DNA of 64,000 bases from Candidatus Aenigmatarchaeota archaeon (GCA_043814985.1 JBDRJK010000011.1:10710-74709), one strand, 5' to 3'; counted from the stretch's first letter, positions 27,000 through 44,103 are shown. Program-made: numbers and translations. The notes: generated from the sequence alone by a model not told the origin.

Positions 27000-28191
27000 A
27001 GGTACTAGGATTTTATGTGGAAAAAGTAGTTGTCCATTGTTGATAAAGTTCTATAGTTATATGAGAACTAAACCACTTATTGATTCGACTACTCTCAATG
27101 GTTCATCGCCACCAGCTTGCTTTGTAGGTTCTTATGGATATCCCAAGGTTTTCGTGGGGCCCTTGGTGCCGCCGAAACACGGTGACACCAGCTTCATGGA
27201 CACGCCTGAGATGTGGAGGGGCAAGACAATGTGGGACATAGTCGACTTCAGGTTCCAGCTGGTGAGGGGCAAGTTCGTGACTGATGTCAAGAACTTTGAG
27301 GGAAAGATAATCGAGCGGACTAGGGAGATTGCCCTGGCTCAGGAGTCTCCCAGTGCTGAGGTTGAGTTCAAGAACAAACCAAGAGGATTATCCTTTAACA
27401 GTGAGACACAGCCCTTTGGTCCGTCGGCAAATGTCATTGGCCTTAATATTGAAAACAAGGGCTACAACAAGAAAATAGAAAAAGCGTTCTACGACACTGA
27501 CCTGAAGGCTGTGCCTGCTGTTGTTGATCTTTACAAGAACGGCGTGCTGATTTCAAAAATACAGAAGGCTTTTTCTGTGGGTGCGTTTGGAATCGGAAAG
27601 AGCAGGAGATTCGTTCCAACGCGCTGGAGCATAACAGCTGTTGATGACATGATTTCAAAACATCTCATAGAGCAGGTAAAAACATTCCCGCTGATAAACG
27701 AGTATCTGGTTTACGAGCACGCTGCTTTGGACAACCGCTGGTTTGTTTTAATGATACCACACGAATGGAGTTACGAGCAGATGGAAGCGTGGTATCCCAA
27801 GACATTGTGGAACCCGTCTGATGCAATTGACATATCAACAGCATGGGAAGGTTTCAACGGACTAAAGGGCTATCCGGATACAGCTGGCTGCTACTTTTCC
27901 ACGAGGCTGGCTGCCACCGAGTACCTTGCCAATGAAAGGAGGCAGGCTGCTGTAATAGTATTCAGGGAAATCCATCCAGGTTACACTGTTCCTGTGGGTG
28001 TCTGGCACACCCGAGAGAGCATAAGGGATGCTGTCAAGAAAACTCCTGTTAGATTCAGCTCAATGAGTGGCGCCTTGGACTATCTGTCAAAGAAGATGAC
28101 CATACCTGTTAAGAGGTGGGTTGAAAAATCCAGTCTTCTTAGGAACCTGATGCGACAGAGAAAGCTGTCAGACTTCATCAAGCCTTTCTAA
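26968..28191 (+). CDS. NreA-like DNA repair protein (DUF650/DUF651)
   Basis: N-terminal 'CVRCKGTRILCGKSSCP' and 'PPACFVGSYGYP'; ~400 aa. Confidence 0.5.
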   Translation: MIIMNLCVRCKGTRILCGKSSCPLLIKFYSYMRTKPLIDSTTLNGSSPPACFVGSYGYPKVFVGPLVPPKHGDTSFMDTPEMWRGKTMWDIVDFRFQLVRGKFVTDVKNFEGKIIERTREIALAQESPSAEVEFKNKPRGLSFNSETQPFGPSANVIGLNIENKGYNKKIEKAFYDTDLKAVPAVVDLYKNGVLISKIQKAFSVGAFGIGKSRRFVPTRWSITAVDDMISKHLIEQVKTFPLINEYLVYEHAALDNRWFVLMIPHEWSYEQMEAWYPKTLWNPSDAIDISTAWEGFNGLKGYPDTAGCYFSTRLAATEYLANERRQAAVIVFREIHPGYTVPVGVWHTRESIRDAVKKTPVRFSSMSGALDYLSKKMTIPVKRWVEKSSLLRNLMRQRKLSDFIKPF

Positions 28192-28868: not shown

Positions 28869-28986
28869 AAAATGTGTATAAAGCTTTAAAAGTCTTTAAT
28901 TGGACTTCTTGAAAGCTGTCAGACTCCATCAAGCCCTTCTGAATAAACTTAAAGTACGGGCTGTGCTATTAATAATAGGTGAAAAA

Positions 28987-29661
28987 ATGAAAACAATAGT
29001 CGTTTTGGCAAGTTTGATTCTAATAGTAAGCTTTGCAGTTACAGCATTCGCAGCACAGGAGCAAATAGGTGTTGGAACAACAGCAACAGCAGTGAAGACA
29101 GCAGCAACACCAGCTGCAATACCAGTTAATCAGAAGAACCAGTTCAAACAAACACTGAGAAATTACTTCAAACCAGTTAATCACGGCTACGGCATAGGCT
29201 TTACAGAAGAGACCTATATAACAGCGAAGTGGCACATCACCAATGTCAAGATTTTGCCAAGGGTCAATGTCAATACAATGATAAGGGAAGTTAAGCAAGG
29301 AAACAACACTGACTGGGATGCTTTGAGAACTAGGATAAGAGAAGCATTGAATGCAGGAACCACTACTGTGAAAAAAGGCAGGATAAGAATAGAGGGAAGG
29401 GATTATGCCTTGACCAATATAGTTGTTTCTAGCGAATCAATAACAGCAGACATAAACCAGGTACCGAACTATTCGGCATGCAAGAATGATGACTTATCTG
29501 CAGAGGATTGTGAAACCAGTTCTGAGAAAGTAGGTGATATCTCAATGACAAAGAAGACCAAGGCAAGCCAGGAAGTGGCAGGCCGTGAGAAAGTATGGGC
29601 TGGAACTTTGACTCTCAATGGCATAGGGTACACATTCGTTACCTTCGTATATCCAAAGTGA
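28987..29661 (+). CDS. secreted protein with signal peptide
   Basis: 'MKTIVVLASLILIVSFAVTAFAAQEQ'; start chosen at MKT (ORF-track start is upstream). Confidence 0.5.
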   Translation: MKTIVVLASLILIVSFAVTAFAAQEQIGVGTTATAVKTAATPAAIPVNQKNQFKQTLRNYFKPVNHGYGIGFTEETYITAKWHITNVKILPRVNVNTMIREVKQGNNTDWDALRTRIREALNAGTTTVKKGRIRIEGRDYALTNIVVSSESITADINQVPNYSACKNDDLSAEDCETSSEKVGDISMTKKTKASQEVAGREKVWAGTLTLNGIGYTFVTFVYPK

Positions 29662-29665
29662 TTGA

Positions 29666-29947
29666 ATGAACAAATTGATTATAGCTGTGGTTATAGTGAT
29701 AATAGCAGCTGTGGCAATAATGATGCTGCCTCCAGCTAAACAGGAAACAGGAACATCAGACACAGTTACAATTCAGGAAGGGGCAACAGCAGAACAGACA
29801 ACAGTGGACGAGTCATACCTTCTAGAGGATTTGTACATCAGCATGCTAGAAGAGGAAATGGATGCCCTGGATATGGAACAGACAGACTACAACAGCGAGA
29901 TGGAAGAACAACTAGCTTCTGATATGAGCCAATTCTATTACGAATGA
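29666..29947 (+). CDS. membrane-anchored acidic protein
   Basis: N-terminal TM 'LIIAVVIVIIAAVAIMML', acidic C-terminus. Confidence 0.4.
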   Translation: MNKLIIAVVIVIIAAVAIMMLPPAKQETGTSDTVTIQEGATAEQTTVDESYLLEDLYISMLEEEMDALDMEQTDYNSEMEEQLASDMSQFYYE

Positions 29948-29984
29948 TTTTCTTTTTCTTTTGTTTTAATTTATTTAGAATTAG

Positions 29985-30119
29985 TTATTGACTGAACAGT
30001 CCGAGTCTTCTTACTGCATCTCTGACAGCCTCGGACCTGTTAGGGTAAATGCCCTGTTCAATTAATTGATCAATCTTCTCTATCAATTCTCTTGTCAGCC
30101 TGATTTGTATTGGGTGCAT
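29985..30119 (-). CDS. ribbon-helix-helix (CopG-like) protein, 44 aa
   Basis: Not in ORF track; MHPIQIRLTRELIEKIDQLIEQGIYPNRSEAVRDAVRRLGLFSQ; RHH beta-strand + 'NRSEAVRDAVR' helix. Confidence 0.55.
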   Translation of the reverse strand: MHPIQIRLTRELIEKIDQLIEQGIYPNRSEAVRDAVRRLGLFSQ

Positions 30120-30329
30120 TTAATCACTTTAGAAAACTTGGACAGAAAAGGATTTAAGCTTGAATTTTTTTTGTGCTTCTATAAGTTTTCTTATAAAAGT
30201 GCGTAATTTGTAGGACAAGTGTTAGACAAACGTAGTTGATGCGTAATGCTGGAAAAGCAATAAATAGTTTCAGTTACCATTAATCTTTGTGTGTTTTACA
30301 CAAAAAAATATTCTATGTGAGGTGAGTAA

Positions 30330-31406
30330 ATGAGTTTAGTTAGTAAAAGATTGAAAGGTAGTTCCGGCGCTGTCAAGGGCGCAATTGTTCTACTCACACT
30401 CGCGTTCATAGTTGCTAGCGTGAGCTATGTAATACCTGCTTTGGCTGTTCATAGTTCATCTGCTGTAATCAGTCCAGAATGGGTTATACCAAGTTCTGAA
30501 TACACATTCACCATAAATGTAACACATACTTATGTTGGCGGTGACGCCATAAGGGAAGTTAGAATATACAATAATACGCCAGGACATGAGGGTTTTGTTT
30601 GCGGTGTTGCTCCTTCTGGATGGTGGCTTATTGACCAAACAGGAACTTCTAATTACTGCCAATACCAAACAAACACCAATTGGCTTTATTATGATGATTT
30701 TGAAGACTTTACTTTCAAGGCAACAATGATTCAGGCCGAATGTACTTTGGTCACATGTTCTCATCTTTTTAGAACATCAACAATAGATATCAAGGAACCA
30801 CAAGGAGAGTTGTTCTATAATCTACCTGAAGTAAAGGTTGATTGTTTTGATCCTATAACAACAAAAACATATGGGGATCCTAAAAAACTTTTAGATGAAC
30901 ATTGGATTAATTCTTCAACGCCAATAACACTCACAGCAACAGATAATAAGGACTGTGATTCTGGTGTTGATTACATAAAGTATAGGTACTGTCTTGATTC
31001 CGGCTGTTATGAAGGCGAACCATGTGACTGTAGGGATGATCCTTGGACTACAGTAGATGACTATACAGATACATTCACAATTCCAGAAGATTCTGAACAC
31101 TGTATAGAATTTTATGCTGTAGACAATGTAGGTAATGATGAAAAGATAAAATCGCAGTGTGTTTTTGTTGACAATCAACCGCCTTATTCTGTTAAGGAAG
31201 TTGGTGATCCAAAGCTCCCACAGGATATAGAGGAAGAAGGTAGCGGAGATGCAGGATGGTCGACAGAAGGAGAATATAATTCACCGACCCATTCAGCAAA
31301 GCTTTATGTTGCAAACGGAGGAAATGACTGGGCTGGAGTTGATATAGAAGTTGATAAAGCTTTAAAAGATATTACTGAATTATCATTTTGGGAGAAAGTA
31401 GCATGA
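30330..31406 (+). CDS. N-terminal segment (signal peptide + first Ig-like Cys-rich repeat) of giant surface protein; interrupted
   Basis: Signal peptide 'AIVLLTLAFIVASVSYVIPALA'; repeat 'ITLTATDNKDCDSGVDYIKYRY...CIEFYAVDNVGNDE...QCVFVDNQPP'; ends at TGA 31404-31406 with downstream ORF open in +1 frame. Confidence 0.6.
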   Translation: MSLVSKRLKGSSGAVKGAIVLLTLAFIVASVSYVIPALAVHSSSAVISPEWVIPSSEYTFTINVTHTYVGGDAIREVRIYNNTPGHEGFVCGVAPSGWWLIDQTGTSNYCQYQTNTNWLYYDDFEDFTFKATMIQAECTLVTCSHLFRTSTIDIKEPQGELFYNLPEVKVDCFDPITTKTYGDPKKLLDEHWINSSTPITLTATDNKDCDSGVDYIKYRYCLDSGCYEGEPCDCRDDPWTTVDDYTDTFTIPEDSEHCIEFYAVDNVGNDEKIKSQCVFVDNQPPYSVKEVGDPKLPQDIEEEGSGDAGWSTEGEYNSPTHSAKLYVANGGNDWAGVDIEVDKALKDITELSFWEKVA

Positions 31407-31422
31407 TGACACATTCGTAGAA

Positions 31423-34400
31423 ATGGATGGGGCATTGGGACCGCTAGGCAGTACATTTGACTGGACAAAGATAGATGCTCTTGCTACACCAAGATGGTGG
31501 ACACCTAATGCTGGTGGAGATGGTTTATCTGGAGCTGGATATGGTTATACTGTACCACCTGCTCTCTATGATACATTCACCAATCTTTTGACTAAAATTG
31601 ATGACGGAACTTGGGATACGAATATTCCTGACACCAATGTGAAAGTAAAACTAATAAAACTAGTTATAGGTGGCTCAGGAAGTTGGATGAATGAAACAGC
31701 ATTTGTAGATGATTTAAGTTTGAATAATGTCATCATAATGTCTGAACCACCAGAATATTGGGTAACTCAAAATACATCAATAACATTGGATTGTGTAGAT
31801 CCAGAGCCTCATCCAGTTGATCAAGAAACTTTGTGCTATAGAGTATCTTTACACGATGATGGATTGGAGTATATAACAAACAATCCAGGTAAATATTGTG
31901 ACACCTTCGGAGGAACAAAAGACGAAGATTGGTGTTGTGTAAATGTTGGTGTCAACCCACTACCAATTCATTTCTTAGAAGATTCACACCATAACCTGGA
32001 ATACTTCTGTGAAGACTATCTTGGCAATACAGAAAGTCCATTTAATATACAGTGGTATTATGTTGATACTGTACCGCCAGCAACGACCAAAACATATGAG
32101 CCTGGTGTGTATGTAGACGGAAATACAGAGTATGCAGACACTGTTCATAGAGTAATATTGGAATCAGATGACGTAGGCGATATTTGTGTAATTGGTTTGG
32201 ATGAAATATATTATAGGGTCAGAGTTTTGAAGAACCCGAACAACTGGCATTACTGTTATGACGGTTGTGACGGATGGAACGGAATACCAGACCATTTGGA
32301 AGCTTTCCAAGCAACCCCATGGTTAACCTATGATGTGCCATTCGGTTTGCCAGAGGAATCTTGTAACGTTATTGAATATTATGCTGTAGACAGTTTAGGA
32401 AACGAAGAAACAGTTAAAAGACAGTGTGTATTCTATGATGCAACAGACCCAGTGACTGAAAAGAGTTATGGAGAGCCATTCTTCAGTCCTGATGGAAATG
32501 TTACAAAGTGGATAAACACAAGTACTGAAATAACCCTTGCTGCAACAGACCCCGAACCACATCCTTCTGGTGTTAAGGAAACAAATTATAGAGTAACATT
32601 ACTAGGAAGCAATGAGGCATGTGAAAGTAATAGTAGATGCCAAGAAATAAAAATAGATGGGGGTGGTTGGACACCATATACGGTCCCATTTACAATTGGA
32701 GAAGAATCATGCCATTTGATTGAATATTATAGCGTTGATAATGTCGATAAAGATGAGGACATAAATAGGCAGTGTGTATTTGTTGAAGACACAGCACCAA
32801 CTATTTTGGAAAAGACAGTCGGTCAGCCAAGTTTTGAGAGAGAAGGAAAGACTTACATATCAGGCCAGAGTCCAATAACCATGAGATGTGAGGATCGGGG
32901 AGACCACCCAGTAGATTATGTCTCAATGTGGTACAGATACAGGGTGAGTGATGACTGTGCAACGTGGGGACCTTGGATTACAGACGGTTGCCAGGATCAA
33001 GTTGTGAACGGATGGTGTGATCCAACAGGACAAGGTGTAGTTGAAAAGACAATATACTTCCCACAAGACTCCTGCCATGAATTAGAATACTATTGTGTGG
33101 ACGCACTAGGCAACGAGGCACAGCATGAATTCGAGATTGATGTTGTTGACAATCAGGCACCTGAAATAGAAAAAATAATAGTCGGTCCGCAATGGGGAGA
33201 CTGTCCACCTGGAGAAGGTGATACATGCTTTGTTGACAGTGCAACCGAGATAATTGTTAATGCAAGCGATCCAGAGCCACATCCAGCAGGTGAAGTGCTT
33301 TGTGATTGGAATGTTGTTGTAAAGAATGTTGCAGGAGCAGAGATTGACAGTTATGGAGATAGTGGAATTACTCCACCATTCCCAATAACCTTCCCAGAAG
33401 AATCGTTCCACGAATTAACAATAGATTGTTATGATAGACTTGGAAATAATGCATACGATTTTGAAGTTTTCGAAGCTGATCATACATCACCTTTAATTTT
33501 GAAGAGTTACAATCCAGAAGAAATATATCGCGAAGGCAATGGATGGTGGGCAGAGTGGATAGACTCAGATACAGAAATAAACATTGAAGTAACTGACGAT
33601 GGAGATCATAAATCAGGAATTAAAGAAGTCAAGTATCGTTATACAAGACAAGACAATGATGAATATTGTAACTACACTGTTGAAGACCAATATGAGTGTG
33701 AAGATGCAGTCGGAACTGGTGTTTGGACATATGTTGACCCAGCAGATTTTGATGACTTTACTTTCCAAATACCACAAGACTCATGTCACTTAATTGAAAT
33801 AGTAGCAACAGACAATGTAGATAAAGAAAATTATCATAAACAGTGTGTATACGTTGACAATCAAGGACCAGACCCATTGAAAGAAGTATATGATCCAAAA
33901 GCAATGTGGACTCCAGGTATAGACGGAGATCAACCAAGTTACTTCTATCCTGAAGAAACTGCACATTGTTGGGATGGAACAGAGTTTTCAATAGACTGCT
34001 GGAAAGTTACAATGATGACAAGAATATCTCTTGACTGCGAAGACAAGCAGCCACACCCAGTTGATCATGAAGGCGTTTGCTTCAAAGTTGGTTTGGATGG
34101 AGAAGACGCAACTGAAGAATACTGTAACAGCAATGAAGAAGTATCCTGTGTCTTAGATTGCACTGATAACGAAAATGACATCAAGGGAGAAATGATTGAT
34201 GGTTGGTGTTGTGTCGATGGTACAATAGAAAACTTTTATTTCCAAGAAGAAACAGAGCACAACCTAAAGTATTATTGTACTGATGCTTTAGGAAATGTAG
34301 GACCAGAAGACGAAGAGAAGTTCAAGGTTGAAGGAACAACATTTGAAATACCATTGTACAAGAAGTGGAACTTGATATCAGTGCCATTTGTATTATTGGA

Positions 34401-35055
34401 CGACGACCCAGAAGTGGTATTCAATAATGTAAAAGAAAACATAATATCAGTCTGGGCATATGACGGAGACAAGGTATTATGTGGTCAAGAGTGGTGCGTA
34501 TGGACACCAGGAGATGGTCCAGATAATCTAAGAATAATACCAGGTTGGGGTTATTGGGTATTGACAAACCTGACAGAAGAACCAGTAGAGGTATTGATTG
34601 GAGGAAGCTTGTTCAGTCCAAGAACAACGCCACCAAGCAGGGATTTGGTTTCAGGATGGAACCTGATTGGTTACTATGGAACAAGTTGGGAACTGTATGA
34701 ATGTGGAGACTTTGAGCCAACATGCAGACCAGGAATCAATTGGTTCCCAGGCAAGTACATATACGGAGACCAAGTATACTGCGCCTTGAACTCGCTGGTA
34801 GACACACAAGAAGGATATCCAAGATGGAGTTCATTGTGGAGTTACATAAGCTGTGGAAGTCACACTGCATATTGGTTAGGATTGAACACATGTGCAGACC
34901 CAGATAGTCCACTACAATCAAACCTTGACAGAATGTATGCAGGTCGTGGATACTGGTTAGAGTTGGATGTAGCAGACATGTATGCACCAGCAACAACTTG
35001 TCTATGGAACAGTGACTATGAATGCAGATGGTCAGGCGGCGGAATAATACCTTAG
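31423..35055 (+). CDS. giant Cys-rich surface protein, >=7 Ig-like repeat modules plus Trp-rich C-terminal domain (continuation of 30330 ORF)
   Basis: 1210 aa; modules 'TLDCVDPEPHP...YRV...EESCHxIEYYxVDxxGNxE...QCVFVD'; no own signal peptide. Confidence 0.7.
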   Translation: MDGALGPLGSTFDWTKIDALATPRWWTPNAGGDGLSGAGYGYTVPPALYDTFTNLLTKIDDGTWDTNIPDTNVKVKLIKLVIGGSGSWMNETAFVDDLSLNNVIIMSEPPEYWVTQNTSITLDCVDPEPHPVDQETLCYRVSLHDDGLEYITNNPGKYCDTFGGTKDEDWCCVNVGVNPLPIHFLEDSHHNLEYFCEDYLGNTESPFNIQWYYVDTVPPATTKTYEPGVYVDGNTEYADTVHRVILESDDVGDICVIGLDEIYYRVRVLKNPNNWHYCYDGCDGWNGIPDHLEAFQATPWLTYDVPFGLPEESCNVIEYYAVDSLGNEETVKRQCVFYDATDPVTEKSYGEPFFSPDGNVTKWINTSTEITLAATDPEPHPSGVKETNYRVTLLGSNEACESNSRCQEIKIDGGGWTPYTVPFTIGEESCHLIEYYSVDNVDKDEDINRQCVFVEDTAPTILEKTVGQPSFEREGKTYISGQSPITMRCEDRGDHPVDYVSMWYRYRVSDDCATWGPWITDGCQDQVVNGWCDPTGQGVVEKTIYFPQDSCHELEYYCVDALGNEAQHEFEIDVVDNQAPEIEKIIVGPQWGDCPPGEGDTCFVDSATEIIVNASDPEPHPAGEVLCDWNVVVKNVAGAEIDSYGDSGITPPFPITFPEESFHELTIDCYDRLGNNAYDFEVFEADHTSPLILKSYNPEEIYREGNGWWAEWIDSDTEINIEVTDDGDHKSGIKEVKYRYTRQDNDEYCNYTVEDQYECEDAVGTGVWTYVDPADFDDFTFQIPQDSCHLIEIVATDNVDKENYHKQCVYVDNQGPDPLKEVYDPKAMWTPGIDGDQPSYFYPEETAHCWDGTEFSIDCWKVTMMTRISLDCEDKQPHPVDHEGVCFKVGLDGEDATEEYCNSNEEVSCVLDCTDNENDIKGEMIDGWCCVDGTIENFYFQEETEHNLKYYCTDALGNVGPEDEEKFKVEGTTFEIPLYKKWNLISVPFVLLDDDPEVVFNNVKENIISVWAYDGDKVLCGQEWCVWTPGDGPDNLRIIPGWGYWVLTNLTEEPVEVLIGGSLFSPRTTPPSRDLVSGWNLIGYYGTSWELYECGDFEPTCRPGINWFPGKYIYGDQVYCALNSLVDTQEGYPRWSSLWSYISCGSHTAYWLGLNTCADPDSPLQSNLDRMYAGRGYWLELDVADMYAPATTCLWNSDYECRWSGGGIIP

Positions 35056-35226
35056 TAAAAACGCTGCCCTTTCCTTTATTTTTATTTGATCAAAGGTGAG
35101 AATCTTGAACAGAAAAGTTATGTATATGGCAATTACGCTTGCATATGGAATGGGGGCTTTAATTGCGCCGAAAATAATAGTTAAGCTTTTATCCTTTTCG
35201 GCTTAACTATAAGCAGGTAATAAAAA

Positions 35227-35982
35227 ATGAACCAAAAATTGATGTTGACTACATTTGTTGGTATTATGTTACTTTCTAATTTAGTTTTGGCAGTGCCAAT
35301 CGCCCATCAATTTTATGGCAATGTCAGTATTAACGGAAGTCCAGCTCCGGATGGAACAACTGTTGTTGCTAAAATAGACGGAACAGAGGTTGGAAGCACA
35401 ACAACTAAAGGTGGAAAGTATGGTTATGACCCAGTATTCATAATATCACTTTCTTCTATACAATCTGGAAGAACAATTAATTTTTTTGTTAATGGAAATC
35501 AAGCAAATGAAAACTTTCAATCTTGTTATGATTTTGCTTGTAGCACAGAATTAGATTTAACAGCTACAGGTGAAACAACTTCTGGCACTACAACAACTAC
35601 TACAGGCGGCGGAGCTCCTAGCGGTGGCGGTTCCACACCATCAACAGAAACCACAACTGAAACAACCGAAACTACAGAAGAGGGTTGCCAGGAGAGATGG
35701 ACTTGTTCAGACTGGGGAGCATGTGAGAACGGCATCCAGACAAGAGTTTGTGAAGACATAAACAACTGCGGAACAAACAGTGGAGAACCGTTCTCATCTC
35801 AGCCATGTGCAACTGTTGGAGAGGAAGCAGAAGCATCAGTTGGACCATCAGGATTCTTCCTACTAACGCCGACCAACCTGTTGATAGGGTCAGTTGTTTT
35901 AATAATAGTCGCGGCAATCACAATCTTTCTATTAAGAAGAAAATCCGAAAACATCGTACTGCCGCCCAAAGCGCTTCTTTAA
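35227..35982 (+). CDS. secreted Thr-rich protein with TSP1-like Cys motif and C-terminal TM anchor
   Basis: Signal peptide; 'TTTTTTGGG...TETTETTE' linker; 'CQERWTCSDWGACENGIQTRVCEDINNCG'; C-terminal TM + 'RRK'. Confidence 0.55.
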   Translation: MNQKLMLTTFVGIMLLSNLVLAVPIAHQFYGNVSINGSPAPDGTTVVAKIDGTEVGSTTTKGGKYGYDPVFIISLSSIQSGRTINFFVNGNQANENFQSCYDFACSTELDLTATGETTSGTTTTTTGGGAPSGGGSTPSTETTTETTETTEEGCQERWTCSDWGACENGIQTRVCEDINNCGTNSGEPFSSQPCATVGEEAEASVGPSGFFLLTPTNLLIGSVVLIIVAAITIFLLRRKSENIVLPPKALL

Positions 35983-36049
35983 AATTTATTCTGTAGTGCT
36001 TGCGTAATGTCAGATAGGCATAAAACTTTTTCCTACTAATTAAAAGTGA

Positions 36050-36802
36050 ATGTCCAAGAAAAATAAGTTTCTCTTTATAATAGTATTGTCGATAGTTTTG
36101 TCGTCTTCGTTAGCCTATGCTATGATAAATTTCCCAGACTTCAAGATCTTCCCGACAATATACGATGAGATAATGCCGAATGAATTGCTTGAGGAGCTGA
36201 AGATTATTGACAGGCTGTCTTTCGTCAAGCTGGCCCAGCACGGCTACAGCCACGGCACAAATGAAAGCCGCCTTGATGTTTTGAAAGGCTACAAGATTCT
36301 GGAATACGATTACGGCTTGGACATAGAATACTATATCCCGCCTTATGATATTCCCCATGCATTCCCCGTGCCCGAAAAAATTTTCTACATACCGGAAAAG
36401 GCCGAGGGCATATACTATGAAAAGGAGAAGATGGACTACGGCCAGTCTTCAGTTGATGATAAATGGACAATGGCCATCCATATTCAGAACGAGATAAACA
36501 CTACTTGGCTGGACGAGATATCAGAGGGAAAGGAGATTGATTACTTCCGTATTGATGACATCAACACGGACATAGTTGATGTAGATACCCAAAAAAACAG
36601 GATATACACCATGATCAACTTCTGCGGCTATAAGAACTGCACCCTTGTTCTGGGTATCATTCCTGTTGTTCCTAGGATGCAGGAGTCGGACAAAAGCTAC
36701 CTTTTCTTCAACAAGGCAATGATAGCCTTGGGCATAATGATGATACTCCCCATATACCTTTTCTACTTTTTGAGTTACCAGTTCCATTGGTGGTTAAAAT
36801 GA
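36050..36802 (+). CDS. membrane-anchored extracytoplasmic protein, weak polysaccharide-deacetylase-like (DUF2334-like 'HGYSH')
   Basis: N-terminal signal/TM, C-terminal TM; 16-nt overlap with GT2 gene. Confidence 0.3.
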   Translation: MSKKNKFLFIIVLSIVLSSSLAYAMINFPDFKIFPTIYDEIMPNELLEELKIIDRLSFVKLAQHGYSHGTNESRLDVLKGYKILEYDYGLDIEYYIPPYDIPHAFPVPEKIFYIPEKAEGIYYEKEKMDYGQSSVDDKWTMAIHIQNEINTTWLDEISEGKEIDYFRIDDINTDIVDVDTQKNRIYTMINFCGYKNCTLVLGIIPVVPRMQESDKSYLFFNKAMIALGIMMILPIYLFYFLSYQFHWWLK

Positions 36803-37845
36803 ATAATGTATCAAGCATCATAATACCGGTCTATAATGAAGAGAAGATTATCATGAATATGCTCAAAAAGAATGTCAAGGTTTTTGAAAACAGCAATATG
36901 GACATCAAGGAGATAATCGTGGTTGATGACGGTTCCATTGACAACTCAAAGAAGGAGATTAAGAGATTCATAAGGGATTACAAAGGCAATATTGACATCA
37001 GGCTGATTCCCCACACAACAAACATGGGAAAGGCCCAGGCTCTTAACACGGGGATAAGGCACGCCAATGGGGAATACGTTCTCTTGTCTGATTCGGACTC
37101 TTTCATGGATGTTGAGGCGCCTGAAAAGATTATTCTGAAGATGAGAGAGACAGGGGCTTCATGTATTGTAGGACATGTTGTGCCTGCTCAGAACACCCTT
37201 CTGACGCGCCTGCAGAGGATGGAGTATGACTTTGACCAAAAGGTAATAAGAAGGGTGCAGTCCCTGTACACCAACGTGATATCAATTCCAGGACCGCTGT
37301 ATTTCACCAAAAAGAGCATTGTTGAAAAGATAAAATTCGACAAGTACAGCATTGTCGAGGATTTCAAGATCGGGATTGAGATGAACAAGAAGAGGCAAAG
37401 GATAGTCCCGACTGATGCCGTGGTATACTCTTATGCCCCTACCAACTTTTCGCAGCTCAGGAAGCAGAGGCTCAGATGGTTCGGGGGAGTATTGAAGGAG
37501 ACCCTGAGAAACAAGGATGTCTGGAAGACCAACCCGTTCTATTTTTCCAACGTGCTGATGTGCTTCACGTCGTTCTTCTTCACCATATCAACCGTAACTT
37601 TGTTTGGCCTGATGCTTTACTTCGCTACAAACCTGCCCAACCTGCTGGTAAACTTCGTGCTGTTCTTCCTTTTCTTCTGCTTTACAATTTCAGCTGTTTA
37701 TGCCCTGTCTATAAGAAGGTTCGAGTTGGACACTTTCCTGGCATTCCCGCTCTATCTGACCTTCTTGTTCATAGTCAGGACAGAGGTTGTCATAAAAGTT
37801 GTTTTGAACAGGAAGTTCGTTTGGGGGACAAGGGAATACCGTTAA
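36787..37845 (+). CDS. family-2 glycosyltransferase, processive synthase type (QxxRW)
   Basis: 'VVDDGSID', 'LLSDSDSF' DxD, 'QRLRWFGG'; 4 C-terminal TM helices. Confidence 0.8.
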   Translation: MVVKMNNVSSIIIPVYNEEKIIMNMLKKNVKVFENSNMDIKEIIVVDDGSIDNSKKEIKRFIRDYKGNIDIRLIPHTTNMGKAQALNTGIRHANGEYVLLSDSDSFMDVEAPEKIILKMRETGASCIVGHVVPAQNTLLTRLQRMEYDFDQKVIRRVQSLYTNVISIPGPLYFTKKSIVEKIKFDKYSIVEDFKIGIEMNKKRQRIVPTDAVVYSYAPTNFSQLRKQRLRWFGGVLKETLRNKDVWKTNPFYFSNVLMCFTSFFFTISTVTLFGLMLYFATNLPNLLVNFVLFFLFFCFTISAVYALSIRRFELDTFLAFPLYLTFLFIVRTEVVIKVVLNRKFVWGTREYR

Positions 37846-38165
37846 TCAGTAGTGTTTCCCTTTAGGAGAATTTCAATTATCTGCGGCAAAGAATTGTTTA
37901 TTGTATTGACAATATTCTCCAGTATCCTGTTGAACAAATAGCCCAATGCACTGTTCGCCCTTTCTGCCAGAACATTAGTGATGTTAGTACCTTCAAACAA
38001 ATCCAAGATATCAGAGACCCTGGTCTGGTTGAACACGGTTATGTTGGGAAGCCCCCTGATGGTGATGTTGGGGATCCTTATGGTTATGTTGGGAATAGTT
38101 ATACCTTGGGCCATCACAACAGGAGAAAGTAGCAGGAACACCGCAAAAACCAGAAAGGCTTTCAT
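37842..38165 (-). CDS. small secreted protein with 'IPNITIR' repeats and many N-x-T sequons
   Basis: Signal peptide 'MKAFLVFAVFLLLSPVVMAQG'. Confidence 0.45.
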   Translation of the reverse strand: MKAFLVFAVFLLLSPVVMAQGITIPNITIRIPNITIRGLPNITVFNQTRVSDILDLFEGTNITNVLAERANSALGYLFNRILENIVNTINNSLPQIIEILLKGNTTD

Positions 38166-38236
38166 GAAGAATAGATTAAATTTTCAACTTAAATATTTAT
38201 CAAGTTTTAATACTGCTTTATTTCCTACGGGTCAGT

Positions 38237-38253
38237 GATTAAGTATTTAAAAC
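38237..38253 (+). promoter_or_regulatory. BRE/TATA promoter element 'gattaagtatttaaaac' ~25 nt upstream of ATG 38273 (leaderless)
   Basis: Archaeal TATA 'tatttaaa'; identical 16-mer reused at 38726. Confidence 0.4.
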
Positions 38254-38272
38254 TTACTGTTTAATTGCTCTT

Positions 38273-38698
38273 ATGAATAAGATATCCTTGAGAATTATTG
38301 AGCCTGTTGACAAGAACAATGATCTTGGAATAATGGCAAGGCTCATACCCGAAGTAAGGATAATATGCTCGAACCAGATAAGGGCGGGCATTCTTCATTT
38401 AATGGTCAACTCTCCGGAGACAATGCACTCCATGAGCGTTGAGAACATGTGTTTTAAACTGGGGATAAGACAGTCTGTTGCCATCCATCACTTGGAAAGG
38501 ATGATTGAGTGGAGGCTGATCGAGGTCAAGAAGAACCAGAGGTACGGCAACAAGACCAGAAGGAGCATATGGGGTCTGAACCTTAAGCATCCCAACTGGA
38601 TAACAGAATGCTACAAGAGCGTAAGGTCACACTTTTTCTCAGAAAAAGAGCTTGACAAGATAACAAACATAAACAAAAGCCTTAGAATTTACAGCTAA
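38273..38698 (+). CDS. putative wHTH transcriptional regulator
   Basis: 141 aa; 'AGILHLMVNSPETMHSMSVENMCFKLGIRQSVAIHHLERMIEWRLIEV' HTH-like. Confidence 0.35.
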   Translation: MNKISLRIIEPVDKNNDLGIMARLIPEVRIICSNQIRAGILHLMVNSPETMHSMSVENMCFKLGIRQSVAIHHLERMIEWRLIEVKKNQRYGNKTRRSIWGLNLKHPNWITECYKSVRSHFFSEKELDKITNINKSLRIYS

Positions 38699-38725
38699 TG
38701 TCGTATTCTTGTACAAGGAAAATCC

Positions 38726-38741
38726 GATTAAGTATTTAAAC
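38726..38741 (+). promoter_or_regulatory. second copy of promoter box 'gattaagtatttaaac' upstream of a ~200-nt leader/ncRNA candidate
   Basis: Identical 16-mer to 38237; followed by GC-rich palindromic block 38851..38940. Confidence 0.35.
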
Positions 38742-38970
38742 TTTTAATGTTCTGTATCACTCCTGTAATAATCCTGTACAGTTTCTGTGCGTAATTTGTC
38801 TCAGAGGGGATTAAATAATTCTTAATTTTATTCTGTTTATGATTAAATTTCTAGAAAGTCTAGAGATGAGTCTAGCGCCGAGGAGGGGCGCTATATCAAG
38901 CTGAGGTTCACCGCGAGGCTTAGGTTTTCCTAGGGAGACAAAATACCCAAAATATTATGGTGAAATTAAT

Positions 38971-39642
38971 ATGAATAACAAAATAATCGCAGCAATTCTT
39001 GGTCTTTTGATGGTAGCATCACCAGCACTAGCATGGAATGTTAACATAGATGCAACTGTTAATAATGCAGTAGCAGGTATATTTGGTGCAGGTGCAGGTA
39101 GTGATACTGGTTTCAGTTATGCAGTTTCTTCAACTGGTGGAATAAGTGGAAGCGGTAACATTGATTTACACGGTGGAGGCAGCAATAACGGTGGAGGAAT
39201 GGGATTAGAAATAGGCGGATCAGGAGCAGAAGGAAACATATTCGCTACACACGACTTAACAGTAATCGGATGCTGTGCAGGACAATGTCCATGCCCAACA
39301 GGTTATGTATATGATGCATCTTCAGCTGTAGAAATAACAGGTGGAGATAACGTAGAACTAGAATTAAAAGGCGGAGCAGGTGAAGAAGGAGCAGGACAAA
39401 AGCTCAAAGTCGGTGGACATGACAACTCAATAGATGCCGGGACAGTTCAAGTAGAAATGGCTTCAAGCCTAACAGTTGACGGAGAAACATCAAGTCATGT
39501 AATGGGCGCATACGGAGAAAACGTATGGTTCAAAGCATTTGGAAAGCAAAAACTTGATGCAGTAGACTGTGCTGTAAACGGATTCTTTGTATCTGTAATG
39601 GGTTTCAGAGAAGCTGTTTGCGATGGCGATAACTGCGATTAA
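38971..39642 (+). CDS. secreted Gly-rich protein
   Basis: Signal peptide 'AAILGLLMVASPALAW'; Gly-rich; 'CCAGQCPCPTG'. Confidence 0.5.
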   Translation: MNNKIIAAILGLLMVASPALAWNVNIDATVNNAVAGIFGAGAGSDTGFSYAVSSTGGISGSGNIDLHGGGSNNGGGMGLEIGGSGAEGNIFATHDLTVIGCCAGQCPCPTGYVYDASSAVEITGGDNVELELKGGAGEEGAGQKLKVGGHDNSIDAGTVQVEMASSLTVDGETSSHVMGAYGENVWFKAFGKQKLDAVDCAVNGFFVSVMGFREAVCDGDNCD

Positions 39643-39772
39643 TTAAGAACATAATCAAAAAAATCGACTCCCCTTTTTCCTTTTATTTTTTAAGGAATTA
39701 AAAATCGAAAGTTTGACTTGATACCTAATGGGTATTTAAAGTTAACTTTTTATTATTATAAAGTGGTAAAAA

Positions 39773-40804
39773 ATGAAGAAAACATTAACAGGATTCGTGA
39801 TTTTATCAATTCTATTAGTATTATCAGTAAACATCGCTATTGCTGAAGAAGAGAGCGTATCATTCGATGTAACTGAGAATGAGACAAACAGCAGCTATAC
39901 TGTAAACATAGACATACAAATCTCAGGAAACGATACTCATGTAAGAGATGACCTATACGGAACAGCAACTGGTTCAGGACCAAGGGATGTGATTTTGGGA
40001 GGTGCTGAATTTGATCATAATAGCGAAGTTAGAGAGATTTGCTATCAGCCAAGCTTACAAGCATATTTTAACCAAATAGGAGACATACCACCATCAGGTT
40101 TTGCAGCATATCTAAAATCTTTGGGATATGATGATGAATCTCATATAAGTTTTATATGGAGTTTGTGCCAGCAAGAGTACATCAACCAACAGCAAGACGC
40201 ATGGTCAACAGACTCTGGCGTACAACCAACTGATATGGTCCGTTACATTACAGGTTCCATAGACTGGTTGTTGGGAAGAGAAGCAAATCCTTTAGACGGA
40301 TACAAAAAGATAGGAGTTGCCTTGGACAGTTACTTTGCTTCTGATAGGGATGTTTGGCTTCTGGTAAACAGAATAAACATTCTGGAGGTAAGAATAGAAG
40401 CATTGGAAAAGACAATAGAAAGAATCGCTTCTGAGGAATACTGTGAAATGAAGGTTGAAGCTCTAATGAAATATAATTTGAGCTATGTCAAGTGCGGAGA
40501 GAACTCGACCATCTATGCAAGAGTCGATCCAAACGAATTTGGTTTCAACATAATCGGTTACACTAACGAGGATCAATGCGCTGTAGAATGGGGATGTACA
40601 GATTGGAGTGAATGCGAGAACGGAATCCAGACTAGAAGATGTTCTGATGCAAACATGTGCGGAAGATATGAAAATAAACCAGAAGAAACACAGGTATGTG
40701 CAGTGGTTCAAGAAGATATAGAAGAGCCAGATTTAACTTATGTTTCAGTCAAGGAAGTCCTTCCAACAATACAGAGCTTGCTTCTGCCTTTGTTCGTGGT
40801 CTGA
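39773..40804 (+). CDS. secreted protein with TSP1-like Cys motif
   Basis: Signal peptide; 'EWGCTDWSECENGIQTRRCSDANMCG' paralogous to motif in 35227 gene. Confidence 0.5.
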   Translation: MKKTLTGFVILSILLVLSVNIAIAEEESVSFDVTENETNSSYTVNIDIQISGNDTHVRDDLYGTATGSGPRDVILGGAEFDHNSEVREICYQPSLQAYFNQIGDIPPSGFAAYLKSLGYDDESHISFIWSLCQQEYINQQQDAWSTDSGVQPTDMVRYITGSIDWLLGREANPLDGYKKIGVALDSYFASDRDVWLLVNRINILEVRIEALEKTIERIASEEYCEMKVEALMKYNLSYVKCGENSTIYARVDPNEFGFNIIGYTNEDQCAVEWGCTDWSECENGIQTRRCSDANMCGRYENKPEETQVCAVVQEDIEEPDLTYVSVKEVLPTIQSLLLPLFVV

Positions 40805-40837
40805 AAGCGTAACAGACCCTTTTGATTTTATTTTCTA

Positions 40838-40968
40838 CTTTGAATAGAGAGTATGTCCCCGTTCTTCAGCTCATAGTCAGCAGAGACTCTCTTCTTTGTC
40901 CTAGCATCGATTGCTCCAATGAACTTGTCACCAATATCAGTGTGAACCTTGTAGGCAAAGTCAAGGGC
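40838..40968 (-). pseudogene. orphan 3'-terminal fragment (~44 codons, TGS domain end) of an Obg-family GTPase gene; diverged direct repeat of 44122..44252
   Basis: ~88% nt identity to 3' end of 44112..45242 gene; encoded peptide [44 protein letters not shown] differs by 1 aa; upstream in-frame stop. Confidence 0.6.
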
Positions 40969-41011
40969 CTGTAGGTATCAACTTTATATTATTGTTGTCA
41001 GAATTATAATA

Positions 41012-43129
41012 ATGAAGAAAGTTATTTTATTTTCTATAATAGCAATAGTCTTGCTGAGCTCAATAACATTGGCAATGACAGACGTGAGAGCGTCAAATAT
41101 TAAATCTAATAGAGTTATAGCGCGCACAAATTCTCTAGCAGACAGGATGCTATTCAGAATGCAGGGGTGCAAAATAATTCACGAGCTGGAAGATGCGACT
41201 GCAATGAATTGCCCAGAGGCAATTGCTTCGAGATTCGAGCAAGATGAAGTTCTTTATATAATGGATTTACAAGCAGACCAACAGATAGGGGCGGACAAGG
41301 TTTGGGCTTTGGGTTATGACGGTTCTGGGGTAACAGTCGCGGTTTTGGATACAGGAGTTGATTATGACCATCAGGAGCTGTCAGACAGCATAGTTGGAGG
41401 TATAAGCTTTGTCTCATACACATCTAGCTATTCTGATGACCATGGACATGGAACACATGTCTCAGGAATAATAACTGCCAATGGTGTTGTAGCCTCTGCA
41501 GAAGGCGTTGCGCCAGGAGCAAAGGTATGGATGGCAAAAGTTTGCGATTCTGGTGGTTCTTGCTATACGAGCGATATAGCAGCTGCGATTGATTATGTTG
41601 TTGATGGGCCTGATGGTGCACCAAATACAGGAGACGAACCAGCAAAGATAATGAGCATAAGCTTGGGCGGCGGAGGAACTTCTAGGTCAAATTGTGATAA
41701 TGATTACTTGGCTTCAAAAGTTAACTGGGCAGTAAGCAAGGGTGTGACTGTTGTAGCAGCAGCAGGCAATACCGGAAGAGTAGTTAGCAGCCCTGGTTGT
41801 GCAAGCGGGGCAATAGCAGTTGGGGCAGTTGACAAAGGCGATGTAAGACCATCTTGGTCTGGCTCAGGCAGTGCGTTAGATATAGTTGCACCAGGGGTAA
41901 GCATTTATTCTAGTTTGCCGGGCGGCGCTTATGCGTCTTGGAGCGGTACTTCAATGGCAACACCGCATGTTTCAGCAACAGTGGCTTTGATGAGGCAGGT
42001 GAACCCGAGCTTAACAGACAGTCAAATCAAAAGCATACTTTATTCAACAGCCAAAGATTTAGGAAGTGCAGGATGGGATAGATATTATGGCTGGGGAAGA
42101 GTCGACGCCTACAATGCATACTTGGCTGTTAAACCAATAGAACCTGAATGCACAATTGATTCAGAATGTGATGACGGATTATACTGTAATGGAGCTGAGA
42201 CATGTATTTCAGGAGTTTGCCAATCAGGAGCATCTGTTGGCTGTTCCTATTTAGATAATCAATGCAATGTTGGAATTTGTGATGAAGCTTCAGATAGTTG
42301 TGTGGCACAACCAAGACCCGACGGAACTTCTTGTAATGACGGTTTGTTCTGTAATGTAGGAGAAACCTGTCAGGCTGGAGCATGCGGCGGAGGAGAGGCT
42401 TACACCTGTGGTGTTAATGACACTTGTACTATTGCTTCTTGTGATGAATCATCAGATAGCTGTTCAAGTTCACCAGTAGCAGACGGAACAACATGTGACG
42501 ATAATTTGTTTTGCACAGTGTATGACGCTTGTACAAGCGGTATTTGCGGTGGAGAACAAATAAACTGTAATGACGGTGTAGGATGCACTGTTGATTCTTG
42601 CAACGAGGGAACAGGCTCTTGCGATAACACGCCGGATAATTCAATATGTGATGATGAAATATATTGTAATGGTGTGGAAACATGCCATGCAACATCAGAT
42701 TGCCAGGCGGGAATCCCAGTAAATTGTAATGATAATAATTTTTGTACAGCAGATAGTTGCGTTGAAGGTTTAAAAACATGTGAAAACGTCTGGGAGGCAT
42801 GTGGTTCGACGGATGGATGCTGCGGACCCGATTGCAATAGTATAAATGATCCAGACTGTGCAACAGCTGTTAAATGCTGGAGCGGAGATTACCAATATCT
42901 CTACAGGAATTCGAATCAGATGAAAAAATTCTGCAAGTGTGCAATGGGTATTTATGGATACAATAGTTACAGTTATAGTTGGGGAAGGGAAACAGTTTAT
43001 TATTATTTAGACTCGGGAAACAATGAAGAGTGGGATACAAATTCAAGGTCATCATATCTTCCAGTAAACAAAGTAGTTTGTGCAGACGGTGAACCATACT
43101 CGACTGGCGAAGATTACTACTACGGTTAA
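41012..43129 (+). CDS. secreted subtilisin-like serine protease (S8) with C-terminal Cys-rich repeats
   Basis: Signal peptide; Asp 'VAVLDTGVD', His 'HGHGTHVSG', Ser 'GTSMATPHVS'; >=6 repeats 'CxDGLYCNGAETC'. Confidence 0.85.
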   Translation: MKKVILFSIIAIVLLSSITLAMTDVRASNIKSNRVIARTNSLADRMLFRMQGCKIIHELEDATAMNCPEAIASRFEQDEVLYIMDLQADQQIGADKVWALGYDGSGVTVAVLDTGVDYDHQELSDSIVGGISFVSYTSSYSDDHGHGTHVSGIITANGVVASAEGVAPGAKVWMAKVCDSGGSCYTSDIAAAIDYVVDGPDGAPNTGDEPAKIMSISLGGGGTSRSNCDNDYLASKVNWAVSKGVTVVAAAGNTGRVVSSPGCASGAIAVGAVDKGDVRPSWSGSGSALDIVAPGVSIYSSLPGGAYASWSGTSMATPHVSATVALMRQVNPSLTDSQIKSILYSTAKDLGSAGWDRYYGWGRVDAYNAYLAVKPIEPECTIDSECDDGLYCNGAETCISGVCQSGASVGCSYLDNQCNVGICDEASDSCVAQPRPDGTSCNDGLFCNVGETCQAGACGGGEAYTCGVNDTCTIASCDESSDSCSSSPVADGTTCDDNLFCTVYDACTSGICGGEQINCNDGVGCTVDSCNEGTGSCDNTPDNSICDDEIYCNGVETCHATSDCQAGIPVNCNDNNFCTADSCVEGLKTCENVWEACGSTDGCCGPDCNSINDPDCATAVKCWSGDYQYLYRNSNQMKKFCKCAMGIYGYNSYSYSWGRETVYYYLDSGNNEEWDTNSRSSYLPVNKVVCADGEPYSTGEDYYYG

Positions 43130-43138
43130 AAATTCTTT

Positions 43139-43564
43139 TTATTTCCTGCTCTGTACGGGAAGGTATTTCTCTGTAAGCTCTTTTTTCATAGAAAAAATTT
43201 TGTTTATTATTTCCTTTCCTTGCCCAAATTCAATCTTTGTTCCATAATAATTTATGCTGTTCCTTATCCATCTCAATCTGTCAAACTTCCCATAGTCAAA
43301 GCCCTTGAGCAAGTCTTTCAGTAGTTCCCCTATGCAGACGTGTGATAGAACCTTGTAGCCCTTGGAAATGCAGACTGCCTCCAGAACCTCCCTCAGAGAA
43401 TCATAGGCAAGGGAGACATAAGCAGATATGTTTATGCTGTCAATCGGCGCCTTCCTTACTGCCATCTCCTTTATGTAGGACATTTCTAACAATGACTTGA
43501 CAAGCTCCCCATCTATTCTAGCCTTCTTTATCAACCCTTTCTCAAAGCATTCACTTAAGTCCAT
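43139..43564 (-). CDS. HEPN-domain protein (partner of MNT)
   Basis: 141 aa all-alpha; 'RLRWIRNSINYYG' HEPN-like R-x4-6-N/H motif; 10-nt overlap with MNT gene. Confidence 0.5.
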   Translation of the reverse strand: MDLSECFEKGLIKKARIDGELVKSLLEMSYIKEMAVRKAPIDSINISAYVSLAYDSLREVLEAVCISKGYKVLSHVCIGELLKDLLKGFDYGKFDRLRWIRNSINYYGTKIEFGQGKEIINKIFSMKKELTEKYLPVQSRK

Positions 43565-44103
43565 TCAATACTACCCTCTATGGCTATGCCGTTCAGCACG
43601 TTGCTGATAAGATGCTTGTTTTTAAGCTCTTTAACATTCTTTACCACAAAGAGTTGTAGCGTTCTGTTCAACCTCTTTTCAAACTTCCTGGTTTGAGGAA
43701 ATTCCTTTGTCTTCTCGGAGACAACCAGCAGGTCGAAATCGCTTGTTTTTGTGTCAAGACCACTCGCGGCAGAGCCAAAAAGGACAATTGCCGGTTTCAT
43801 ATAGAATGCGTTCAAGGCAGCGACCAGACCCGATTTCCTCAGCTTCCTTATGTTATAGTAGGTCTTCAGGTCCCTGTAGGAGTCGCTTTCAAGGTCCGAC
43901 CTGTACAGATTGAAGCCCCTTTCCTTCCTTTCCTTCAGAAGGCCCTCCTTTGCCATTCTTTTCAGTTCCTTGCTCGCAGTCGCCGGTGAGATTTCCGAAA
44001 GCCTGGCAACCTCCCTGACATTGAATTCCTTGGCAGGGTCCTCAAAGAATATTTTCAGTATGTTTAATTTATTGAACATATGTTTAATTTTATGAACAGA
44101 CAT
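43555..44103 (-). CDS. wHTH + minimal nucleotidyltransferase (MNT)
   Basis: 'VLFGSAASGLDTKTSDFDLLVV' GS-x9-DxD; N-terminal wHTH. Confidence 0.65.
   Translation of the reverse strand: MSVHKIKHMFNKLNILKIFFEDPAKEFNVREVARLSEISPATASKELKRMAKEGLLKERKERGFNLYRSDLESDSYRDLKTYYNIRKLRKSGLVAALNAFYMKPAIVLFGSAASGLDTKTSDFDLLVVSEKTKEFPQTRKFEKRLNRTLQLFVVKNVKELKNKHLISNVLNGIAIEGSIEWT

Follow-up and report, generated by a model that had tools for sequence, protein, structure and literature searches.

Within a 64,000-nucleotide (nt) stretch of DNA from a Candidatus Aenigmatarchaeota archaeon (GCA_043814985.1, JBDRJK010000011.1:10710-74709), hereafter the window, the region between 28.9 and 43.1 kb encodes a cell-surface system, a conclusion supported by the close packing and conserved order of its genes for exported and membrane proteins, along with a processive glycosyltransferase of family 2 (GT2). 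We read this region as a conserved cell-envelope neighbourhood built around a two-gene cassette that recurs across the DPANN archaea, in which a small anchored protein would tether a giant exported one, and we put the probability of this reading at roughly 0.6. The strongest result is the near-obligate pairing of the unanchored giant with a small protein anchored at its C-terminus. In the genome analysed here, a recent deletion that shifts the reading frame has inactivated or split the giant gene.

The region is set apart by its exported products. Signal-peptide-like N-termini were found in 9 of its 13 genes, versus about 3 among the 66 window genes outside it (Fisher p=6.5e-7), and most of the nine include a cleavage site of the A-x-A type. 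These signal peptides were called by heuristics, backed by conservation of the N-termini among homologues. The open reading frame (ORF) listing and translation place most of the gene run on the plus strand, and the Cys content is high in the giant protein (60 Cys) and in a subtilase (48 Cys). A preliminary description of this DNA had proposed a dense cluster of secreted and Cys-rich proteins in a reduced-genome archaeon. The ORFs that it named are all present where it had placed them, the density is confirmed, as is the Cys-rich character of the giant and the subtilase, and the source is indeed such an archaeon, the window being part of a Candidatus Aenigmatarchaeota metagenome-assembled genome (MAG).

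The giant protein and its anchor partner

To follow the cassette, one genome per GTDB species was scanned with patterns derived from the giant-protein alignment, and the loci were numbered with the prefix L. A relative of the giant is encoded in 147 species representatives. The best 80 loci carry nine DPANN lineage labels (Aenigmatarchaeota, Iainarchaeota, Woese-, Pace-, Micr-, Nano-, Alti-, Nanohalo- and Parvarchaeota), with Iainarchaeum andersonii and the complete AR10 genome among their sources. Of the 79 loci in which the 3' end of the giant gene is present, 67 have on its strand an anchor-family gene that begins less than 600 nt downstream of the giant; five of the 12 loci without such a partner have no room downstream. 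The partner family is homogeneous in its tail: among 77 ORFs, 74 end in a C-terminal transmembrane (TM) helix and 73 in a basic tail, and 61 of the 77 carry the motif TG[F/A/L][F/V] about 10 residues before the helix (L001-L084). The copy in the window (35860-35982) reads SGFF at this site. This arrangement of motif, helix and basic tail resembles a sorting signal, and its processing as such is speculation; none of the NCBIfam CTERM models matches the partner-family tails and no archaeosortase gene was seen near the cassette.

Some loci deserve a separate mention. Genes of type IV pilus or archaellum type adjoin the cassette in two of them: in L002 (15689-19516), T2SSE and T2SSF genes follow it, and in L003 (1-294 and 15130-15924) a Peptidase_A24 prepilin peptidase and a T2SSE gene flank it. 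Short cassette contigs also occur inside MAGs labelled Omnitrophota, Pseudomonadota and Chloroflexi (L005, L038, L058 and L072), most likely as binning errors; L038 and L058, from the same MAG, may be two copies of the cassette.

The anchor protein of the window consists, in order, of a signal peptide, a transthyretin-like beta-sandwich N-domain (PIAHQFYGNVSINGSPAPDGT...), a Thr/Gly-rich linker, one module with six Cys residues, the sequence GPSGFF, a TM helix and an RRK tail. In its AlphaFold2 model, pLDDT exceeds 90 over residues 25-115 and is about 90 over residues 155-195, with a helix at 215-242. The model contains no helix besides the signal peptide and the TM segment, and no coiled coil. 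Its fold matches are generic beta-sandwiches, among them SlaB of the Sulfolobales (8qox_B, E=4e-3, TM-score 0.25).

The six-Cys module, C-x-E-x-W-x-C-x-x-W-x-x-C-x-N-G-x-Q-x-R-x-C-x-D-x-N-x-C-G-T, is present in 32 ORFs across the loci. A second copy lies in another protein of the cluster, encoded at 39773, and is 50% identical to that of the anchor. Both proteins had been labelled TSP1-like, a name that we abandon after three negative profile-level tests: Pfam TSP_1 gave no match at E<=10, a 20-sequence profile of the module recovered no thrombospondin type 1 repeat (TSR) chain from the PDB at E<=10, and hhalign against human TSP-1 TSR2-3 returned a probability of 1.8% over 10 columns. The likeness to TSP1 is that of a 10-residue motif and is confined to C-x-x-G-x-Q-x-R.

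The intact giant is a Cys-rich protein of about 1,570 amino acids (aa) with multiple immunoglobulin (Ig)-like domains and no anchor. Its repeat signature, E-[ED]-S-x-H-x-[LI]-E-Y-Y-x-x-D-x-x-G-N, occurs at least eight times, at least seven of them in 31423-35055. The NCBIfam model NF047446 (OmpL47-type beta-barrel domain; cutoff 40 bits) matches the ORF at 31423 in three stretches (9.6e-29, 99.7 bits) and that at 30330 with 40.1 bits (3.7e-10); the full-length OmpL47 equivalog model scores 62 bits, far under its cutoff of 250. A search returned 248 homologues, typically of 1400-1900 aa, and those with a named source are DPANN archaea. The modules inserted in these homologues differ, and include an integrin-like vWA domain, DUF4215 and a lectin-like insert. 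Between relatives the giant is 38-51% identical, versus 67-71% for Nre, the product of a gene flanking the cluster.

The most conserved part of the giant is its C-terminal domain of about 240 aa. A profile of this domain collects 294 clusters at 50% identity with E<=1e-30, and among the best matches listed it sits at or near the C-terminus of long proteins. Its AlphaFold2 model has a pTM of 0.69, and a Foldseek search of the PDB with this model gave nothing under E=0.015 (TM-score about 0.14).

At the other end of the protein, the N-termini compared, from 40 homologues, include plain Sec signals as well as long ones, and all reach a common mature start, ...A↓xH[TSD], the arrow marking the cleavage site. 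A KG or KA followed by a hydrophobic stretch is limited to the closest homologues. A class III (prepilin-like) signal, considered for the giant, was abandoned after comparison of these 40 N-termini because they all converge on this mature start, with ordinary Sec signals outside the closest group.

In the window, the giant gene is present as two ORFs in different frames, 30330-31406 and 31423-35055, which meet at 31399-31409. The product of the first aligns with residues 8-373 of the homologue P0006 (1565 aa) at 47% identity, and the two closest relatives keep the gene as one intact ORF, of 1430 aa in L051 and 1557 aa in L033. The codons lost at the break are present in every homologue that has the lectin-like insert (aligned to P0006, P0084, P0077, P0023 and L051), and the missing stretch (N.YGVN.ILG.DADGDG...) includes the conserved ILG-x-DA-D/N-GDG. 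A contig of an independent Logan assembly (run SRR27458548) is 100% identical over 29971-31720, break included; the interruption is therefore in the data and is no binning artefact. The disruption looks recent since the 3' part is still open for 1210 codons. This 3' fragment has neither a signal peptide of its own nor a membrane anchor. Programmed +1 frameshifting at GCA-UGA-U was set aside, since the site lacks a slippery codon and the gene has also lost 36-40 conserved codons. What had been described as a single giant Ig-repeat protein is thus confirmed in its repeats and not in its unity.

We propose that where the cassette is intact its two products would form a two-part surface structure. 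The first gene would specify the protein of about 1,570 aa, exported through a Sec-type signal peptide and built from OmpL47/Big-like beta-sandwich repeats with disulfides, at least eight in number, from optional inserted binding modules and from the unique C-terminal domain, with no anchor of its own. The second, directly downstream, would specify the protein of about 250 aa held by its C-terminal helix in the membrane, with a basic tail and a sorting-signal-like TG[F/A] before the helix, and would present its conserved beta-sandwich N-domain on a Gly/Thr-rich linker. The small protein would act as a membrane stalk that holds the giant at the surface, probably through the two most conserved domains, the C-terminal domain of the giant and the N-domain of the anchor. 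The logic would be that of a two-component surface layer or fibril such as SlaA/SlaB, without homology to it. In this lineage the cassette is accompanied by two regulators, ribbon-helix-helix (RHH) and winged helix-turn-helix (wHTH), two small exported proteins, a sequon-rich protein, a fast-changing secreted slot and the subtilase, while a PgaC/NodC-like processive GT2, possibly with a deacetylase-like partner, would produce an exopolysaccharide.

Synteny, codon usage and accessory genes

The gene order of the cluster recurs in two GTDB species representatives of Aenigmatarchaeota. In L051 it reads Nre, a PIN-like ORF, the orthologues of the 28987 and 29666 genes, RHH, giant, partner, the 36050 orthologue, GT2, the 37842 orthologue, wHTH, a variable stretch, the 39773 orthologue, the S8 subtilase and the 43139 orthologue; in L033 the order is the same as far as the locus extends. 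L001 retains it in part, with the upstream pair, RHH, giant, partner and wHTH, and without the GT2 pair. Since this order recurs in L051, L033 and partly in L001, we regard the cluster as a lineage feature with variable cassettes and not as the strain-specific island that it might have been.

The total GC content of the cluster, 0.41, is close to that of core genes, 0.43, and whole-cluster horizontal transfer was rejected on this ground. At third codon positions (GC3) the cluster is a mosaic relative to the core mean of 0.485. Values of 0.23-0.34 characterize the giant, partner, 38971, 39773 and S8 genes (0.26-0.30 for the giant and the anchor), and values of 0.53-0.62 the 36050, GT2, 37842 and wHTH genes. 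The split between the giant, partner and S8 genes and those of the GT2 block is kept in L051 and L033, where the 39773 orthologues are core-like. The S8 protein of the window is 85% identical to that of L051, versus 67% for Nre. The mosaic GC3 and the identity of the S8 protein may fit gene-specific codon selection or horizontal exchange of the genes for exported proteins. A skew relative to the core, which the preliminary description had suggested checking, is found in GC3 and absent from total GC.

The features of the cluster and its flanks are collected in Table 1. Apart from the GT2, S8 and RHH proteins and the OmpL47-type giant fragments, no cluster ORF has a significant Pfam or NCBIfam match, the 28987 protein included.

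Table 1. Coordinates of the cluster genes, the giant-gene break and the flanking genes in the window
Feature	Position	Strand	Remarks
Nre	26968-28191		flank of the cluster; Pfam
Nine signal-peptide-like ORFs	starts 28987, 29666, 30330, 35227, 36050, 37842(-), 38971, 39773, 41012		n-region with K/R and hydrophobic core
Exported protein, unknown fold	28987..29661	+	224 aa; signal peptide ...AFA↓AQ; lineage-specific
Acidic membrane protein	29666..29947	+	93 aa; N-terminal TM segment 1-27; net charge -18
RHH regulator	29985..30119	-	44 aa; divergent from the giant gene
Giant gene, 5' fragment	30330..31406	+	long Sec-type signal peptide, first beta-sandwich domains, first half of lectin-like insert domain
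Giant gene, break point	31399..31409	+	reading-frame change; about 36-40 homologue-conserved codons gone
Giant gene, 3' fragment	31423..35055	+	1210 aa from first ATG; homology begins at 31402
Anchor partner	35227..35982	+	251 aa
Deacetylase-like candidate membrane protein	36050..36802	+	250 aa; N-terminal signal/anchor and C-terminal TM; stop overlaps GT2 start
Membrane-embedded processive-type GT2	36787..37845	+	motifs and three C-terminal TM helices
Sequon-rich secreted protein	37842..38165	-	107 aa; signal peptide VMA↓QG; seven N-x-S/T sequons
Putative winged-helix regulator	38273..38698	+	141 aa; weak HTH_5 match, E=0.006
Gly-rich secreted protein, variable slot	38971..39642	+	223 aa
Secreted protein with second six-Cys module near C-terminus	39773..40804	+	343 aa; signal peptide AIA↓EEE
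Secreted S8 subtilase	41012..43129	+	705 aa; 330-aa Cys-rich C-terminal extension
Obg-like GTPase	44112-45242		flank of the cluster; Pfam

Upstream of the giant gene, the orthologues of the 28987 protein occupy the same position in L001, L033 and L051 and are 49-69% identical; those of the 29666 protein directly follow them in all three, which makes the latter gene a conserved partner of the former. The best NCBIfam model for the RHH protein is CdrS, a haloarchaeal cell-division regulator (1.6e-11, 44 bits versus a cutoff of 100); RHH models of NikR and ParD also match, and aCcr1 reaches 19.5 of 60 bits, so that the protein stays under the curated cutoffs of CdrS and aCcr1. An RHH ORF lies at most 1.5 kb upstream of the giant in 6 of the 51 loci with upstream sequence (L003, L009, L033, L042, L051 and L084).

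In the glycan-related block, the GT2 matches PF00535 Glycos_transf_2 (1.3e-29) and PF13632 Glyco_trans_2_3 (2.8e-18), and its translation contains the D, DxD, ED and QxxRW motifs of its class as VVDDGS, SDSDS, VEDF and QRLRW. Its best NCBIfam models are PgaC_IcaA (2.1e-33) and then NodC (6.5e-21); with the PgaC/IcaA equivalog TIGR03937 it scores 115.9 bits versus a cutoff of 422.3. The preceding 36050 gene belongs to a family with the invariant motifs QHGxxH, HxQ and RxDDxNTD. Its own match to DUF2334 is non-significant (E=0.23), while homologues P0205-P0207, 47-48% identical to it, carry PF10096. The order of the motifs is permuted, QHGxxH preceding RxDDxNTD where the canonical order is Asp-Asp and then His-x-x-x-His, and the protein may be a circularly permuted DUF2334/deacetylase-like domain. 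A profile of the family gave chance matches to TM segments only in the PDB.

Further downstream, weak orthologues of the sequon-rich protein have the same position and strand in L033 and L051, and the 38273 orthologues of L001, L033 and L051 are 70-74% identical. The slot that follows is variable: the Gly-rich protein matches its positional counterparts in L051 (17709-18263), L033 (21132-21722) and L001 (16328-16927) over residues 1-21 alone (to about residue 50 for L051). The signal peptide is nearly identical among these counterparts (MN.KIIAA..GL.M.A.P.LA); the proteins of the three relatives form a family of 184-199 aa, mutually 36-42% identical and unrelated to the Gly-rich mature part in the window. 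The 39773 protein is matched over its full length by orthologues in L051 and L033 (46-48% identical) and in part, over residues 136-319, by a sequence in L066 (51%). The subtilase matches PF00082 Peptidase_S8 over residues 104-362 (1.3e-57), with the D/H/S triad motifs of the family intact in translation (LDTGV, HGTHV and GTSMATP); its C-terminal extension has no significant Pfam match.

Most functional names of the preliminary description survive this analysis: the GT2 synthase on its Pfam match, motifs and TM helices, the small sequon-rich secreted protein on its seven sequons, the subtilase with a Cys-rich extension on its domain, triad and 48 Cys, and the RHH regulator at the level of fold class, its CdrS match being under the cutoff. 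The deacetylase-like label is possible and weakly supported, by the PF10096 homologues and not by the protein's own DUF2334 match. For the wHTH regulator there is the weak HTH_5 match.

The surroundings, said to be otherwise housekeeping, are not entirely so. A 131-aa ORF at 61356-61751 (+) has a pilin-like N-terminus (MKGQFFVMATVIMILTL). Next to it, at 61787-64000 (+), lies a longer ORF, over 730 aa and cut off by the window end, for a second large surface protein that does not belong to the cluster; its product combines a class III-like signal of archaeal type (MRGVSVIIATVLVLMIS) with a Cys-rich stretch and with Laminin_G_3 repeats (6.9e-59). A free-standing 411-aa ORF with a LAGLIDADG_3 domain (25764-26999, +; GC 0.31) overlaps the Nre start by 32 nt with its 3' end. 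At 43139-44103 (-), a 182-aa protein with a wHTH and an MntA-like nucleotidyltransferase is paired with a 141-aa helical protein without a family match; the pair is probably a type VII (HepT/MntA-like) toxin-antitoxin. A HepT-like/NTP_transf_2 pair is inserted upstream of the giant gene in L001. Searches of the 64-kb window yielded neither tRNA genes nor Rfam families.

Competing explanations

The preliminary description saw in the cluster a system for host attachment or cell-surface interaction. The cell-surface part of this proposal holds, on the dense syntenic set of exported proteins and the GT2. For host attachment, the giant and the other secreted proteins would be adhesins and enzymes that bind and process the host surface, a view compatible with the two-part surface structure and not exclusive of it. 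Tandem Ig-like repeats of an adhesin-type OmpL47-type domain, inserts that vary among homologues (integrin-like vWA, DUF4215 and lectin-like), the low identity of the giant between relatives when compared with Nre and the variable secreted slot after the wHTH gene would all suit such a role, and published work takes DPANN surface proteins as candidates for host interaction. However, the cluster is conserved rather than strain-specific, and the cassette is also found in Iainarchaeum andersonii and Altiarchaeota, which are possibly capable of independent life (PMC6349945). This distribution and the broken giant gene both argue that host attachment is not the defining function of the cassette, and we consider this explanation of the cluster doubtful, though with some plausibility left.

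Rather unlikely, too, is that the cassette represents an undescribed envelope or attachment organelle common to DPANN, with a docking domain that has no solved relative, a six-Cys module, its own sorting signal cut by a sortase-like enzyme and genes exchanged horizontally between lineages. Horizontal exchange of the cassette genes would explain both the conserved low GC3 and the 85%-identical subtilase.

The cluster could also be the ordinary surface-layer (S-layer) locus of these archaea, kept in all relatives, with the giant as lattice protein and the small protein as membrane stalk, as SlaA and SlaB are in Sulfolobales. Conservation was indeed found, in L051, L033 and partly in L001. The adjacency of a large unanchored and a small C-terminally anchored gene, kept across the superphylum, the weakly SlaB-like fold of the anchor N-domain and the multi-Ig make-up, without C-terminal TM, of published DPANN S-layer candidates all agree with this explanation. 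Against the S-layer identity itself speak the composition of the giant, whose 60 Cys differ from the almost complete lack of sulfur amino acids described for the Micrarchaeum S-layer protein, and codon usage off the core: the low GC3 of the giant and anchor genes is the opposite of what very high expression would lead one to expect, although this is a weak hint at most. Compared by their descriptions, the published candidates are shorter than the giant, at about 1000 aa or 101 kDa. Moreover, we saw no similarity in sequence to either SlaA or SlaB, a coiled coil is absent from the anchor model, and the giant gene is disrupted here, with no replacement seen in the window. We consider an ordinary S-layer locus improbable.

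Display of the giant on, or its assembly by, a type IV pilus-like machine through a class III (prepilin-like) signal is very improbable: the N-terminus ...AVKG↓AIVLLTLAFIVAS, strongly conserved among the closest homologues, looks like a site for prepilin peptidase, and pilus-type genes adjoin the cassette in L002 and L003, but plain Sec signals occur in many homologues, all of the family sharing the mature N-terminus past an A-x-A site (...ALA↓VH[ST]), the cluster contains no pilus genes in the window, and such neighbours were found in 2 of the 4 loci inspected by called genes.

The two-part surface structure remains our preferred reading, and several points weigh against it. The signal peptides of the nine cluster ORFs were assigned heuristically. 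Gene content, synteny, the pairing of the two genes, their domain composition and the break are observed, whereas the binding of the anchor to the giant, display at the surface and the polysaccharide are inferred. The predicted anchor lacks the coiled-coil stalk of SlaB, its match to the SlaB fold being that of a generic beta-sandwich. The disruption of the giant gene means that the cassette is dispensable or non-functional in this organism. Finally, the few loci with type IV pilus neighbours may point to a different assembly route.

Relation to known systems

Little is known of the way in which DPANN archaea form their envelopes and adhere to other cells, and no structure of a DPANN S-layer or adhesin has been solved. 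The cassette, with a relative of the giant in at least 147 species representatives and its two genes always in one order, offers a concrete and widely applicable target. For the window itself the result is more modest, that of a conserved lineage feature, not a strain-specific island, whose central gene is broken. We found no description of the cassette in the literature on DPANN S-layers, surface and giant proteins and Aenigmarchaeota cell surfaces, the coverage of which was incomplete, so that this is an absence of evidence.

Among DPANN proteins, the published S-layer candidates NEQ300, Micr_00292 and MJ1_0160, each of about 1000 aa, and the giant SPEARE proteins of Nanohaloarchaeota (8,900-9,400 aa; TM segment, VirB4-like ATPase) are, like the giant, exported multi-Ig proteins proposed for the envelope or for host contact. 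They are set apart by their descriptions, which include neither the C-terminal domain nor the pairing with an anchor gene. Leptospira OmpL47-type multi-beta-barrel proteins and bacterial adhesins with Big/CHB_HEX-type repeats are likewise exported tandem-repeat proteins, and the 99.7-bit NF047446 match joins the giant to them. The giant differs from these adhesins in being archaeal, in its unique C-terminal domain without a fold match in the PDB and in its dedicated anchor partner.

The GT2 and its neighbour recall the PgaC/IcaA and NodC synthases that act with PgaB/IcaB deacetylases, by the GT2 motifs, the C-terminal TM helices and the translational coupling to a membrane protein with His and Asp motifs. 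They depart from them in the GT2 score (116 bits versus 422), in the non-significant DUF2334 match of the partner and in its permuted motif order. The tail of the anchor family, TG[F/A][F/V] followed by a TM helix and a K/R cluster, is reminiscent of the PGF-CTERM/archaeosortase and LPXTG/sortase systems, from which it is separated by the lack of a curated CTERM match, the SGFF of the window copy and the lack of an archaeosortase in the vicinity.

The closest analogy is with SlaA/SlaB of Sulfolobales, which are also encoded by two adjacent genes, the first for a large unanchored protein of multiple beta-sandwiches and the second for a small one that begins with a beta-sandwich and ends in a TM anchor. 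Membership in this system fails because no sequence homology of the giant or the anchor to SlaA or SlaB was found, the SlaB fold match is generic, a coiled-coil stalk is lacking and the giant is Cys-rich. Where SlaB has a trimeric coiled-coil stalk, the cassette anchor has a Gly/Thr linker and a six-Cys module, and the giant adds variable inserts to its Cys-rich composition. What the cassette would bring to the range of two-component archaeal surface structures is a new putative docking domain, a new Cys module and a possible new sorting signal.

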